Shown here: positions 3,001 to 9,000 of the stretch, in pieces
How positions within the stretch are numbered: position 1 is the first letter of the stretch
Layout of the letters: each line of letters begins with the position of its first letter
NCBI GenBank assembly: GCA_043818275.1
Contig: JBDRFY010000041.1
Location: forward strand, 1-18,480
Source of the DNA: a bacterium
GTDB taxonomy: Bacteria > Babelota > Babeliae > Babelales > JAUWHS01
Direction: 5' to 3'
Length of the DNA: 18,480 nucleotides
Made by a program: the position numbers

Positions 3001-6000
3001 CGGTGCTTCAGGCGAAATGCGATCAACATTACCAAAAAAATATTCGTCGATCATAACATCACCAATGATTAAAACATTTTTGGTTTTTAAATTTTTAATC
3101 CCTGAAAACATTATTAAACCACTCCCATTTCATTAAAAACTTGCGGTTAAATTAATTTTTTAGATAAACATTGTTGTATAGTTTATTAATAAATTTTAAT
3201 TATAAAAGAAAAATATAAGGAGTTTAATAATGGAATTGCAAATTTCATATGATATGCCAAGCCTGGATCAGGCTTTAAATATTGCAAAACATACAGCAGA
3301 ATTTGCAGACATCCTGGAAGTTGGATCACCATTAATTTTAAAAGAAGGTGTAAAATCTGTTTGCGAATTTAAAAAAAATTTTCCTGATAAAAAAATCTTT
3401 GCTGATATCAAAATGGTTGACCGCATAGAAACAATAAAAATTTTTACTGACTGCGGAGCTAAAATAATTTCTGTACTGTGTGCTACAAGTCATTACGTAA
3501 TTCAAAAAGCTGCAAATATTGCTCATGATAACGGCGCAAAATTGGCTCTCGATTTACTTGGTGATTATTCTATGGGGCAAATTGCAATGGATGCAAAAGC
3601 ATTAAATGTAGACATTTTAATATTGCATAGACCTCATGAAGACGGAACAGTTATAAATATATTAGATGAATGGGAAACAATTAGGGGAAATACAGATCTT
3701 CCAATTTTTTTAGCTGGTGGCATTAGCAGAAAAAACATTGATAAAGTTCTTGAACTAAAACCTGAAGGAATTATAATTGGAACCTCAATTACTCAGGCAA
3801 ACAATCCTGCAAAAGAGGCTGAATATTTTAGATCGTTGATAAAAAAATAATATCAAATAAAGGCTGCAAAAATGGAAATACCTAAATATGAAGTTCAGGA
3901 ACAATTAAAACCCTCTGGTTTGGATGGGATTTCTGATGAACAAATAAATGACCATTGGAAATTGTACGAAGGTTATGTCAAACAAAGCAACCAATTAAAT
4001 GAAGATCTAAAAAATTTAGAAGAAAAAGGTGATGGAAATAGTTTGTTGTACGCTGATAGAAAAAGAAGATATGGATTTGAATACAATGGCATGATTTTAC
4101 ATCAATACTATTTTGGAAATTTAAAATCAAATCAAAAGTTAACTGATGAAAGTAAATTAAAAAAAACAATTGAAAATCAATGGGGATCTTTTGAAAATTG
4201 GACTCAAGATTTTGCAAACACAGGAAAAACAAGAAGTATTGGCTGGGCAATTTTGTATCTTGATCCAGTAACCGGAAATTTAACAAATCATTTTATTCAA
4301 GAACATGGAAATGGAATTATAGCAGGCTTTGTTCCAATTTTAGTTATGGATATTTGGGAACATGCATACATGGTTGATCATAAATCTGGCGGACGTTCGG
4401 ATTATATACAAGCTTTTATGAAAAATATCAATTGGTCAAAAGTTGAAAAACGATTTACTAAATCAAAATAAAAAAAGCCAGAAAAATGCAGTTTTTTTTA
4501 TTTCTTCTTCTTCCCTTTTTTTTCTTTTTCAAATTGTAGCTTATAAAGTTCTTTTATTTCTTTAACGGTTGTTGCATCTTGCGCCGCTTTATCTTGCCTA
4601 TAACCCATAATTCTTGGAAACCGCAAAGCAAAACCAGGTCCTTCTTTTGTCAATCCCGCGGTATGCAATGGAGACTGTGTTATTTCATCAGCGCGAATTT
4701 CACAAACAATTTTAGGTTCACACCAAACATCAGGGTAAAGCTCTTTGGCGCATTCAACATTTTTTGGTTTATTTGCTACTTTAATTTCATCACACATTTT
4801 TTTCTGTTCTTTCCACTGTTTATCAGTAAGTCCTGTTCCCATTTTTGCTATAGTTTCAAAATTATCATCTTTTTTATTGTAAACACCAACAAGTAAAGCG
4901 CCAATACCGAAAGAAACTCGTTTTCCTTTGCCATGATAATAACCTAAAATTACACAATCAATTGAATCAGAGAGTTCCCCACCTTCTTCTCTTTTTAATT
5001 TAATCCAGTTAAAATTACGTTTTCCCGGTTGATAAACTGCATCTGGTCTTTTTGCAACAATACCCTCTAAACCAACTGTAATATTTTCATTAAAATATTT
5101 TTCTAATTCTTCAGATGTATCTATTTTTTCTTCATCGATTGGAAGCAAAATATTTTGTTTTTTAATTGTTCCTGATTTAAAAAGATTAAGTAATTCTTTT
5201 CTTCGTTCATGATAAGGTTGATCAAGATATGATTTGTTATTCAAAAATAAAACATCAAACAAAAATAATTTTAATGGAAATTCTTTAGCCATCTCTTCTA
5301 TCGCATATTTTCTTTTTCTTTTTACTGTTTCCTGGAACGGTAAAAAATTACCTGTCTCTTCATCAAAAGCAATTGCCTCACCTTCCGAAATCAAATTTTT
5401 AACACTTAATTTTTCTACAATTTTTTTTAAATCCGGAAACATATAAGACATATCTTGTAAATTTCTTGAATAAAAATGAATTTTTGGAATTTTTGTATGC
5501 TTATCAACATGAACCTGCAACCGAAAGCCATCAAGTTTCGGTTGAGCTATACACTTTCCAATTTTTTTCAATATTGCTTTAGAGTTTTCTAATCTTTCGG
5601 CAGCTGCTGGTCTAATTGGAATTCCTGGAATTATTTTCATATGCCGTATAGCTTTTATTCCATCTTCTTTTAATGTTTTTACAATTAAACCAATATCAAC
5701 TGAAACATTATATGCATCTTCCAAAGCTTTTCGTAAAGATTTATCCCCTAATTCCATCCATGAAAAAGCATCAAGCAAAGTCATATCTGAAAAACCAAGG
5801 CGTAATTTTCCAATAATTATTCGAACGACATATTTTGCTGAAATTGCATCAAGATTATGTAATAATTCTAATAAAATTTTTTCTTTTTTTTCCTGGGCAC
5901 CAGTCCCTGAAATTTTTTCAAATTCATGCAATTCTTGTTCTACATCTTTTATTGATAATTCTTTTTTTATTCTTGATTTATAATTTTCCTTTTCAAAAAT

Positions 6001-9000
6001 CAACCCTAAATCACCTGCTCTAGTTGCCGATGATTTTATTTTACTCTCACTTAAATCCAAAAGTTTACCTAAAACTTTTAGCATGTTTTTTTCAGCAAAA
6101 TTAAATTGAGTTCCAATATATGTAGGATTTAATTCCCCCAAAGACATATACGAAATTATTGCCGCTTCATTTGGAGATACCTTTTTTAAGAGTTCAGCCA
6201 AAAGCCTGGTAATTTTTGTACGAGAAGATTCTTTTTCAATTTCATTAAAGACTTGAGCCACTTCTATAAATTTCATAATAAAAATCCTTTTTTATAATTT
6301 TTTATCTAAAAAAAGATTAGCATAAAAAAATGACAATAAAAAAAGACGGAGTTTTAAAAACTCCGTCTCAATAATTTAAATGGTAGCGACGCAGGGACTC
6401 GAACCCCGGACCTACGGATTATGATTCCGCCGCTCTAACCAGCTGAGCTACGTCGCCACATAATATTTCAAGAACCATTATTTGCGGAGCCTGCCCCGCG
6501 TGTCCGCCGAAGTTTTAACGAAGGCGGAAGTTCATCGAGGGGTCGCCACATAATATTTCAAGATTCCTCGCTCAGTTCAAAATAAATCCTGATCATCCTG
6601 AGCCTGTCGAAGGACACATAATATTTCAATAATAATATCGCAATTTTTTTCACCTACTTGTCCGCCGAAGTTTTAACGAAGGCGGAAGGGATCGCCAATT
6701 AAATTTTTATGCTTTTTATTTTTGAATTATCCAAAATAAAATCAAAAATCGAATGTAAGAAATAAACGCCCGAAAGAACTGTAGCTATTATACCAACCAT
6801 CAAAGTTACGGCAAAACCCCTGATCGCCGGACCACCAAATTTAAATAAGACAACTCCAGTTAAAAAAGTGGTTATATTTGAATCCAAAATAACAACCATC
6901 GCGCCACTAAAACCATCGCTTAATGCTTTGCGATAGGTTGCTCCGGTTTGAAGTTCTTCTTTAATTTTTTCATAAATTAAAATGGACGCATCAATCGCCA
7001 TACCAATAGTAAGAACCATTCCAGCGATACCTGGCAAAGTTAATGTTGCTTCAAAATAAGACAAGAACAACAAAATCAAAAATAAATTGAAAAACAACGC
7101 CAGAAAGGCAAAAATTCCTGCAAGTTTGTAATAAAAAATACTAAAACCAAATAATAAAAGAAGAGCAACTAAACAAGAAATTAATCCCTTTCTAATCGAG
7201 TCTTGCCCTAATGATGCACCAACCCTATTTTCCTGTTCAAATTTTAATGGAGCAAGAAGCGCTCCCGATCTTAAAACAAGGGCCAAATCTTTTGCTTCTA
7301 TTTGGTTTGAAATTCCAGTTATTCTACCATTTCCACCAATCGCTGATTGAATTGTGGGAGAAGAAAACATAACATCATCAATTATAATTCCCAAACTTCT
7401 ACCAATATTATTTCCGGTTAATTCTCTAAAATCTCTTGCTCCCATTGCATCTAATTGAAATGCAACTTCAACTCTGTTAAATTCATCAAAACTTATTCTT
7501 GCATCAACAATATGATCTCCTGTTAAATCTGGAAATGCAGAAACTAAATACCATCGGCCAACCTCTTCATCTTCATCATAATTTTTACGATTGTTTTTTC
7601 CGACAACAATTGTTTTATCTGGTGGAAGTTCACCATCATATTCGTCAAGAAGTTCTTCTTTAGTTGATCCTTCTTTTTCAACAATTTTAAATTCAAGCAA
7701 AGCCGTTTTTGTAATAACTGATTTAACTCTTTCGGGATCATCAACTCCTGGCATTTGAACAACAACCTGTTTTTCACCATGTTGTTGCACAGTTATTCCT
7801 TCAACGCCAAAACCACTAAGTCTGTTACTTAAAACGCTTACGGCTTGTTCCACCGCTCCTGTTCTGATTCTTTGTTCTTCAACTGGAGTCAAAGTACAAA
7901 TTAAATCATTATCTTTCAACACTACTCTTAATGTTGGGACTTCTGCCCGAATAAGGTTGTAACAAACTTTAGCATTATCTTCATCATCAAAATCTAAATT
8001 CAATGATGTTTTAATAACATCCATTTTTTTAGGTAAAACTTTTAAACCCTTTTTTTTGAATAAATCAGTTAAGGCTTTTTTTTCAAGGCCTAAACGGTTT
8101 TCAATTGCTTTATCAACTTCCACACCCAAAACAAGATATGTGCCCCCCTGCAAATCAATTCCTAATTTTAATCGTGGCATTTTAATCGCGCCCAAATATT
8201 TTTTAACAATATTTGTAAACCCTGAAACAGGACCAACTTTTTCCAGCGCTTTGGTGTTAAACGAAAATAAAAAATATGATCCAACTACCAAAACAGCAAT
8301 CCAAAACATTAATTTTGAAAAAATCATATGAACGACACGAGTATTCATCAAAAAACTCCCTGTTATTATTTTTACTACTCTCATCCGTCTTCGTTACTCT
8401 TCGACGGGACAATTTATTTAATTTACTAAAACATTAAATCCTTCGTTCCTCAAAATTCCTCTGGAAAAACAAGATTAGCAGGCAAAAAAATGGCCTGCCA
8501 TCTGAAGCCTTGGCGAAAGATGGTGCCGAGGAGGAGACTCGAACTCCTATGGGATTTCTCCCGCTGCCCCCTTAAAGCAGTGCGTCTACCAGTTTCGCCA
8601 CCTCGGCACAACACGCATTATTTTGGAAAAAATTCTTTGTTTATAACAATGCGAAATTTATCATATTCTAATTGTATTGGCAAATGTTAAATTGGACAAA
8701 TTTAAAGATAATTCAGGGTGATTTTAGTTTTAAAATCACCCTGAATTCAACAGCTGTGTAATTTTTTAAATTTATTATTTAATTTTTTAAGCTCAAGACA
8801 TTGGAGGTGGCGCCTCTGGCATTGGAACAAATGACATAGGAGAAGGTGGTACTGGCGGCATATTCATTGGCATTTGAGGTATAGGTTGAGGTGGAATTGA
8901 AGCAAGAGGTTCCATCCCTGTTGACTGAATTGTCATATCCATGGAAGGCGGTGGAGATACTTCAACTTCTTCTTTTCCATCTTCTTCAACCCGTTGTTTT

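Follow-up and report, generated by a model that had tools for sequence, protein, structure and literature searches.

Introduction

Reviews from 2020 and 2025, in their sections on bacterial ligases, assign replication in bacteria to NAD+-dependent DNA ligase (LigA) and present the ATP-dependent ligases of bacteria as accessory enzymes (PMC7470946, PMC12133292); the 2020 section has the ATP-dependent enzymes occurring 'in all cases' in addition to LigA (PMC7470946). According to the same sections, bacterial Lig B is one of these accessory enzymes: it is thought to be archaeal in origin, always stands alongside LigA and is clustered with genes for Lhr helicase, a metallophosphoesterase and an exonuclease (PMC7470946, PMC12133292). 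The ligase reported here has the same three domains as Lig B; the clade to which it belongs excludes LigA.

Replacements of LigA have been described before. In high-light Prochlorococcus marinus, an ATP-dependent ligase (AD-Lig P) likewise takes the place of LigA, in the same chromosomal slot (bioRxiv 10.1101/2020.05.11.089284). AD-Lig P differs from the Babelota ligase in that it is limited to a single ecotype and is placed in the OB-2 group by the ligase section of the 2020 review (PMC7470946); its activity has been assayed, whereas the Babelota ligase is known from sequence. For Babela massiliensis and TM6SC1, Pagnier et al. (2015) reported the loss of the NAD-dependent ligase and the presence of an ATP-dependent one instead (PMC4378268). 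In the part of that paper considered here, this is one parenthesis on two genomes, which gives neither the ligase type nor a phylum survey, an origin or a spread to other phyla. An earlier note on the present locus had proposed Babelota as the first bacterial phylum to have swapped the replicative ligase class; both of these accounts, on Prochlorococcus and on the two TM6 genomes, precede it. For the complete genome of Dictyoglomus turgidum, a table of 85 genes for replication and repair lists an ATP-dependent ligase, Dtur_0780, and no NAD-dependent one, which passes without comment in the portion of the text considered (PMC5167688). Literature searches for the Microgenomates DNA ligase returned the Dictyoglomus paper as the sole match, and those for the Dependentiae DNA ligase an iridovirus paper; the word 'ligase' is absent from the main text of PMC7143001, and no DNA-ligase passage was found in PMC4776705 or PMC6561590. 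No literature search was aimed at the ligases of Thermoflexus, Nitrospirota or Acidobacteriota.

The ligase gene and its product

The window, i.e. the whole stretch of DNA analysed, comprises 18,480 nucleotides of contig JBDRFY010000041.1 from the Babelota genome G000 (GCA_043818275.1; 94% complete, 92 contigs); its features are listed in Table 1. The product of the ligase gene, g00507, matches TIGR00574 dnl1 with 407 bits against a cut-off of 218. Motif I, which is at least 90% conserved across 159 aligned ligase sequences, spans residues 245–252, so that K247 is assigned as the catalytic lysine, as had been proposed for g00507. The closest solved structure is PDB entry 2hiv (E = 1.5e-107 over residues 1–585), which we take to be the Sulfolobus solfataricus replicative ligase, followed by Lig1 (about 1e-67); the DBD–NTase–OB architecture is common to the window ligase, the archaeal replicative ligase and human Lig1. 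The window ligase differs from the archaeal enzyme in that its DBD has no counterpart of the loop inserted in 2hiv, presumably the Sulfolobus PCNA-binding loop, and in that its cell has DnaN rather than PCNA.

Other identities were tried and rejected. The protein is not an NAD-dependent LigA, as it has neither PF01653 nor PF03120, nor an LigD/LigC enzyme of end joining, as the DBD is present and no Ku was found in G000. An accessory Lig B was rejected on the absence of LigA, on the housekeeping neighbours (secD, tRNA, SOD, HUMPS and rsmG in the window) and on scores under the NCBIfam equivalog cut-offs (NF002868, 235/641 bits; NF006701, 163/543; TIGR04120, 147/400); the Babelota-type clade is about 30% identical to LigB-type genes that co-occur with LigA. 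Split ligases in Babelota family f3 were ruled out, since both domain matches lie within one open frame. Recurrent neighbours at the Babelota loci were labelled by similarity to the window genes or from their own sequence.

Table 1 Features of the window, with positions counted from its first nucleotide
Feature	Position	Strand	Remarks
rsmG (GidB)	143..787	-	Recurrent downstream neighbour in Babelota
OMPdecase/HUMPS-family gene	3230..3850	+	Recurrent downstream neighbour in Babelota
ATP-dependent DNA ligase, Lig1/archaeal type, DBD-NTase-OB	4498..6276	-	Intact ORF, 592 aa; putative replicative role
Lys-rich C-terminal stub	4501..4536	-	Longer in some relatives, to QxS[LI]F clamp-like motif; motif absent here
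OB domain, carries motif VI LRFPR	4588..4908	-	PF04679, aa 457-563
Nucleotidyltransferase domain	4993..5607	-	PF01068, aa 224-428; motifs I, III, IIIa, IV, V intact
Motif I QPKLDGFR, aa 245-252	5521..5544	-	K247, predicted adenylated lysine
N-terminal helical DNA-binding domain (DBD)	5761..6270	-	PF04675, aa 3-172
tRNA-Met(CAT)	6381..6457	-	Member of conserved secD-tRNA-ligase neighbourhood
secD, conserved upstream neighbour of ligase	6699..8384	-	<3 kb from ligase in 13/20 Babelota loci

Absence of LigA in Babelota

Profile searches of G000 found no PF01653 and no PF03120 domain. Searches of the same genome with E. coli LigA returned nothing by tblastn (best E = 0.97) or by phmmer --max, and a 16-sequence LigA HMM run on all six frames gave a best E of 0.005, on an HhH stretch of an RecD2-like helicase. 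An HMM of ATP-dependent ligases matches a single G000 gene, the one in the window. These searches bear out the earlier note, which held that the genome has no LigA and that g00507 is its only DNA ligase.

The claim that LigA is missing throughout the phylum, formerly based on 40 relatives, also stands in a survey of 261 Babelota genomes: PF01653 and PF03120 each occur in one genome, both times G070. Nearly all genomes surveyed are drafts, with many single-contig assemblies among the Babelota. The LigA contig of G070 also bears genes for an mRNA capping enzyme, a thymidine kinase and a Nudix protein. A second, very divergent LigA-like gene in G070 (38 bits on PF01653) was overlooked by the genome-wide PF01653 search and picked up weakly by the OB-domain search. 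Both genes lie in virus-like neighbourhoods and are read as candidate co-binned giant-virus DNA, less certainly so for contig C113.

The ATP-dependent ligase is present in 251 of the 261 genomes and in 186 of the 189 that are at least 90% complete. In the other three of these 189, the ligase slot seems to have fallen into an assembly gap: in G016 and G147 a contig ends at a distance of about 100 and 250 bases, respectively, from the end of secD, and G037 is also without secD. In G251, Ku adjoins a 331-residue minimal ligase; the status of sole DNA ligase is thus valid for the G000 assembly, not for all Babelota genomes. As for other replication proteins, DnaN was found in 10/10 and PolA in 4/4 of the Babelota genomes tested, and HolA (PF06144) in none of the five searched.

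The ligase swap in other bacterial phyla

LigA is missing in 143 of 151 sampled genomes of Microgenomatia (the class of G263): 138 have the ATP-dependent ligase only, seven LigA only, one both and five neither. For the Nitrospirota order of G301 (n = 31), the corresponding numbers are 19, 11, 0 and 1. When 49 of the 61 relatives of the Thermoflexus genome G290 were examined, a close ATP-dependent ligase was found in 12 of the 15 that lack LigA and in none of the 34 that bear it. In one Acidobacteriota group, too, this ligase clade and LigA almost exclude each other. Both classes occur together in two tested genomes, G297 and G383; the LigA of G383 is partial and lies at the end of a contig. 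Related genomes do not count as independent cases, so that this exclusivity amounts to perhaps 6–8 events rather than hundreds; for the same reason, Fisher tests on it (p from 1e-7 to 5e-9) were set aside as evidence.

A slot between Fic and pth in Microgenomatia holds either LigA or the ATP-dependent ligase. The LigA-bearing members form one shallow clade (six of six Fic sequences), in which LigA was probably regained. Comparison of short loci in Nitrospirota revealed no neighbours common to the two ligase classes; in Chloroflexota, pcrA/uvrD alone among the neighbours recurs beside both. The swap had been presented as a peculiarity of Babelota, with the proviso that other LigA-less bacteria might exist. 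The proviso proved correct and the peculiarity did not, since the swap is also seen in the majority of Microgenomatia and in lineages within Nitrospirota, Chloroflexota and Acidobacteriota.

Origin of the Babelota ligase

In an IQ-TREE run in which archaea were represented by five DPANN sequences, the Babelota ligases form one clade nested within Patescibacteria (Microgenomatia) ligases. Keeping 25 Patescibacteria sequences together without Babelota was rejected (p-AU = 0.019), this group having been named after the tree was seen; in a narrower test, monophyly of 17 Patescibacteria sequences was not rejected (p-AU = 0.31). The tree suggests that the Babelota ligase was acquired from CPR bacteria, with Microgenomatia as the putative donor.

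Clamp docking

The earlier note asked how such a ligase docks on a bacterial beta clamp, for which the partner motif QL[S/D]LF is known (PMC9690074). The answer is partial: a subclade of relatives carries a clamp-like tail, but no recognisable C-terminal clamp motif was found in the window protein, which ends in its Lys-rich stub. The clamp-like motif QxSLF occurs in 31 of 123 close homologues and in 5 of 51 genomes, all in family f17; a phylum-wide motif was rejected, as the tail is found in 0/20 further Babelota loci. A loose pattern, Q..[LIMF].?[FYL], occurs in the DBD loop region of 2/132 sequences. Modelling of a tail-bearing relative in complex with the clamp gave 0.51 against 0.01 for the best control, a weak support for binding. 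NucS/EndoMS of Actinobacteria, in the passage considered, is likewise of archaeal origin, has taken over from a bacterial system and docks on DnaN with a pentapeptide at its C terminus (PMC8228993); it is a mismatch nuclease and hence a mere analogy for the ligase tail.

Discussion

It is very probable that Babelota use the archaeal-type ligase, likely derived from Microgenomatia, as their housekeeping DNA ligase, and that its clade has displaced LigA repeatedly. The proposal that g00507 is the replicative ligase is well supported, and more strongly than in the earlier note, by its status as sole ligase, its lineage-wide retention, its exclusivity with LigA and its occupation of the LigA slot, the last seen in Microgenomatia rather than in Babelota. 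In the proposed mechanism, K247 would be adenylated from ATP, the DBD, NTase and OB domains would encircle nicked DNA, and the enzyme would seal the nicks that PolA leaves behind at Okazaki fragments and in repair, within a replisome that would otherwise be bacterial, beta clamp included. The donor would most likely have been a member of Microgenomatia (CPR), with the transfer preceding the radiation of Babelota and vertical inheritance beside secD afterwards. Most ligases of the clade probably manage without a clamp motif of their own, whereas a C-terminal beta-clamp motif has probably arisen in one subclade.

A LigA that is unassembled or too divergent to be seen, with the window gene as an accessory LigB-type repair enzyme, might still account for these data: G000 is 94% complete, the 38-bit gene of G070 did escape a genome search, and the review sections rank bacterial DBD–NTase–OB ligases as accessory (PMC7470946, PMC12133292). 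However, each of two LigA domains is missing in 260 of the 261 genomes, which include many single-contig assemblies; an HMM built without the divergent G070 genes still recovers them (9e-50 and 1e-21), and the full HMM finds none in G000; and the neighbours, which comprise secD, a tRNA and rsmG, do not match the cluster of helicase and nuclease genes described for LigB. This explanation is largely refuted already, and we consider it very improbable. We give equally little credence to the view that a host-derived or unrecognised enzyme seals replication nicks while the window ligase serves repair only. Babelota do live inside protists, as stated in the part of PMC4378268 considered, and G000 has LigD-like phosphoesterase and prim-pol genes according to the earlier note alone; yet the ligase is kept at a conserved locus in nearly all high-quality genomes, large-genome carriers such as Thermoflexus are equally LigA-exclusive, and the ATP-dependent ligase takes the LigA slot in Microgenomatia.

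As to the cause of the swap, the earlier note saw it as fitting a parasite that imports ATP. Adaptation of an intracellular parasite to ATP import or NAD scarcity agrees with six TLC translocase matches in G000 and with the small genomes of the two largest LigA-less groups, but seems unlikely: TLC is absent from all four other LigA-less genomes tested, three of which are of 3.3–4.6 Mb, the Paceibacteria (class of G269), a control with equally small genomes, retain LigA in 91 of 101, and one Microgenomatia clade has LigA, probably regained, in the same slot.

Beyond the housekeeping role in Babelota, we hold it reasonably likely that a distinct, undescribed clade of ATP-dependent ligases of archaeal derivation provides the standard replicative enzyme in Babelota, in most Microgenomatia, in lineages of Chloroflexota, Nitrospirota and Acidobacteriota and probably in Dictyoglomota; that it moves between bacterial phyla and, at one locus, has both replaced LigA and been replaced by it; and that a beta-clamp motif is a secondary gain of one Babelota subclade. 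As an enzyme family these ligases are well known, the TM6 swap was mentioned in 2015 and Prochlorococcus is a precedent; the breadth of the swap, across at least four other bacterial phyla, looks new. Some of this may already be recorded in a 2016 survey of bacterial ATP-dependent ligases and in the supplements of the 2015 TM6 paper.

The swap of LigA is far commoner than the textbook view has it, and LigA is no universal bacterial marker or drug target. Sister lineages that differ in ligase class alone, including a swap within the same slot, make the question of why bacteria use NAD-dependent ligases testable. If the reading is true, the divide between NAD- and ATP-dependent ligases would be a trait that changes readily in evolution rather than a rule separating the domains of life.

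The ATP-dependent ligase and its locus

The genome under study (G000; 1.33 Mb in 92 contigs, 94% complete) carries the ligase gene on contig C41, which makes up the entire window. The encoded protein passes TIGR00574 with 407 bits against a cut-off of 218, and reaches none of the equivalog cut-offs for bacterial LigB and LigD. Motif I (QPKLDGFR) is intact and contains Lys247, as the earlier note had stated; the later motifs are intact too. The top solved relative is PDB entry 2hiv (E = 1.5e-107 over residues 1-585), with human ligase 1 ranking behind it, and the close homologues that bear names are labelled Dependentiae, Babeliales or TM6, in keeping with the Babelota assignment in the earlier note.

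An ATP ligase is present in 251 of 261 Babelota genomes at E <= 0.001, a count that takes in a few weak or partial matches, and in 186 of the 189 high-quality ones. In the three high-quality genomes without a match, a contig breaks off beside secD (G016, G147) or secD is lost too (G037), which accounts for the misses. At 13 of 20 Babelota loci spread over families, no more than 3 kb separates secD from the ligase; at all eight such loci that were scanned, and in the window, secD is followed by tRNA-Met. The Babelota locus is a stable, housekeeping one and not mobile.

Features in the window (contig C41), elsewhere in G000 and at one comparison locus
Feature	Position	Strand	Remarks
ATP-dependent DNA ligase ORF	C41:4498-6276	-	592 aa; PF04675, PF01068, PF04679
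REP-like sequence, about 27 bases, two copies	C41:6490-6700		Between tRNA-Met and secD; spotted by eye
Three neighbouring Pro-rich, coiled-coil-like ORFs	C41:8793-12535	-	N-termini alike; no Pfam match for the 547-aa ORF
RNase HII-like ORF	C62:21580-22326	+	Clamp-like end, QTSLF; ligase tails in relatives have this form too
HEPN-like ORF (sequence-based label)	C8:1374-1796	-	Clamp-like end, GQLDIF or GQKNIF
HEPN-like ORF (sequence-based label)	C19:6092-6496	+	Clamp-like end, GQLDIF or GQKNIF
HEPN-like ORF (sequence-based label)	C63:6732-7151	-	Clamp-like end, GQLDIF or GQKNIF
polA, split over two reading frames	C78:21225-24100	-	Possibly a sequencing error
Microgenomatia ATP ligase (genome G431)	L191:1558-4443		Intein with LAGLIDADG domain directly after motif I

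Absence of LigA

The earlier note had claimed that G000 lacks LigA and that the ATP ligase is its sole DNA ligase; both statements held. Profile searches of G000 with PF01653 and PF03120, both of which were detected in 11 of 14 control genomes, gave no match, nor did unfiltered searches with E. coli LigA against its six-frame translation. An HMM of 16 LigA sequences, which recovered two divergent genes at 9e-50 and 1e-21 when they were left out of the build, matched only an HhH stretch of a RecD2-like helicase (E = 0.005), and an ATP-ligase HMM matched a single gene. G000 contains DnaN and PolA, and a search for Ku in it found none. In another Babelota genome (G251), Ku adjoins a separate 331-aa ligase, so that 'only ligase' is not true of all Babelota.

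Across the phylum, absence of LigA stood for 260 of 261 genomes; each LigA domain was found once, both times in G070. The contig of that gene is 159 kb long and also bears mRNA capping enzyme, thymidine kinase and Nudix genes; we read it as giant-virus DNA within the bin. G070 has another LigA-like gene, of greater divergence, among ankyrin, kinase and F-box/LRR genes; despite its 38 bits on PF01653, the phylum-wide genome search overlooked it and is therefore of limited sensitivity. Cellular LigAs matched in one piece score about 150-340 bits in the sampled groups outside Babelota. The two G070 genes, divergent and NAD-ligase-like, lie one each on two large contigs, G070:C140 (L001, L043, L044) and G070:C113 (L217, L222), which look like giant-virus DNA from their capping enzyme, thymidine kinase, F-box/LRR and kinase genes.

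Ligase class in other phyla

The nearest homologues outside Babelota are from Patescibacteria. LigA occurs in one (G297) of 50 genomes picked from 80 homologue loci, ten of the 50 belonging to the Babelota ligase clade. Sampling then centred on four genomes. In the class of Beckwithbacteria G263, which we take to be Microgenomatia, 138 of 151 genomes (one of them, G375, unpublished data) are ATP-only, seven LigA-only, one has both and five neither; the order of Manganitrophaceae G301 (n = 31) gave 19, 11, none and one, respectively. Among relatives of Thermoflexus G290, 46 of 61 have LigA. The ATP-ligase search covered 49 of these: the 15 without LigA comprised 12 with an ATP ligase of the Babelota kind, one with a fragment and two with none, and none of the 34 with LigA had such a ligase, four having a 30%-identical LigB-type gene. 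For Acidobacteriota G305, LigA is present in 26 of 31 relatives; G305, G647 and G648 have an ATP ligase of the same kind without LigA, G651 a weak match only and G672 none. The control, the class of G269 (presumably Paceibacteria) with similarly small genomes, has LigA in 91 of 101.

Three further observations concern single genomes. One Chloroflexota genome (L182, G504:C43) has a LigB-type ATP ligase immediately upstream of ligA, and in a LigA-less 4.6-Mb genome (L190, G479:C1) the ATP ligase runs over two frames, probably an assembly error. The single-contig G263 gave no match to PolA polymerase (PF00476); an unusual GC skew, running in one direction, has been reported for a group containing Beckwithbacteria (PMC7143001).

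Origin and exchange at one site

In both a FastTree tree of 132 rows and a quick IQ-TREE tree of 62 rows, rooted on LigB-type genes, the Babelota ligases group in a single clade (support 100) that is nested in Patescibacteria rows; under this rooting, Micrarchaeota and Nanoarchaeota lie near the base. The sister row of the clade, L146, has a gene context of Microgenomatia type. An AU test (LG+G4) rejected grouping 25 Patescibacteria-cluster rows without Babelota (p-AU 0.019), the group having been chosen post hoc from the tree, and a narrower test gave no rejection (p-AU 0.31). These trees suggest that the Babelota ligase was likely transferred from a CPR (Patescibacteria) donor.

In Microgenomatia, a Fic gene is followed by the ligase, with pth a few genes downstream. 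LigA occupies this slot at L139, L183, L185, L186 and L187 (both flanks) and at L138 and L184 (one flank), and the ATP ligase does so at L057, L059, L084, L119, L120, L129 and L189. Upstream pilB-like, holB-like and Fic genes are common to L089 and the LigA loci. In an unrooted Fic tree, the six LigA-linked rows group in a single shallow clade, which has L089 as its sister and lies amid 38 ATP-linked rows; the simplest reading is that LigA was regained once at the same site. A comparison of short Nitrospirota ligase loci found no slot that the ATP ligase has in common with LigA.

Clamp interaction

The ligase is missing a loop inserted in 2hiv, which we take to be the PCNA-binding site of the latter. 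The window ligase ends in a lysine stub. Among the 123 closest homologues, 31 have this stub lengthened to Q-x-[STDAN]-[LIMF]-F; by genome, the tail occurs in five of 51, all in family f17, and a related hydrophobic-F end occurs in 11 of 11 in family f18. The tail is close to the beta-clamp consensus QL(S/D)LF (PMC9690074). Six of 1153 G000 ORFs end in the Q-x-[STDAN]-[LIMF]-F pattern, the RNase HII-like protein included.

A complex model of G150 DnaN with its own ligase tail gave weak support for binding, with a median score of 0.51 (runs 0.51, 0.01, 0.64; best control 0.01), with partner pLDDT 36-48 and at least 60% of contacts in agreement between runs. Of 157 solved complexes, 116 reach the mark, as do two of 215 mismatches; only 18 of the 157 and both mismatches do so at <=0.60, and the model may pass through resemblance to solved clamp-peptide structures. 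HolA (PF06144) was not found in any of the five Babelota searched (G000, G007, G182, G243, G251), where DnaN is present, with seven of 14 controls positive; PMC4378268 already gives HolA as lost.

Cause and standing of the swap

The ATP import to which the earlier note linked the swap fits G000, which has six TLC translocase matches; against it as a cause, four other LigA-less genomes tested have none, and LigA is retained in Paceibacteria. It would be more economical to suppose a neutral displacement by a nick-sealing enzyme that works autonomously. In high-light Prochlorococcus, a different ATP ligase was swapped into the same slot (bioRxiv 10.1101/2020.05.11.089284), and where 85 replication and repair genes of D. 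turgidum are listed, an ATP-dependent ligase is the only ligase (PMC5167688). Passages of reviews from 2020 and 2025 still name LigA as the bacterial replicative ligase (PMC7470946, PMC12133292).

The further claim, that Babelota are the first phylum with a swapped ligase class, fell, the swap being already known in outline for TM6: in 2015, PMC4378268 noted for two genomes that an ATP-dependent ligase had taken the place of the NAD-dependent one. As a genomic pattern, the ligase swap is real and well supported. Beyond the TM6 outline, a literature search, with subscription journals and some lineages outside its scope, did not find the clade spanning phyla, its exclusivity with LigA, the exchange in one slot or a likely CPR origin, and these appear to be new.
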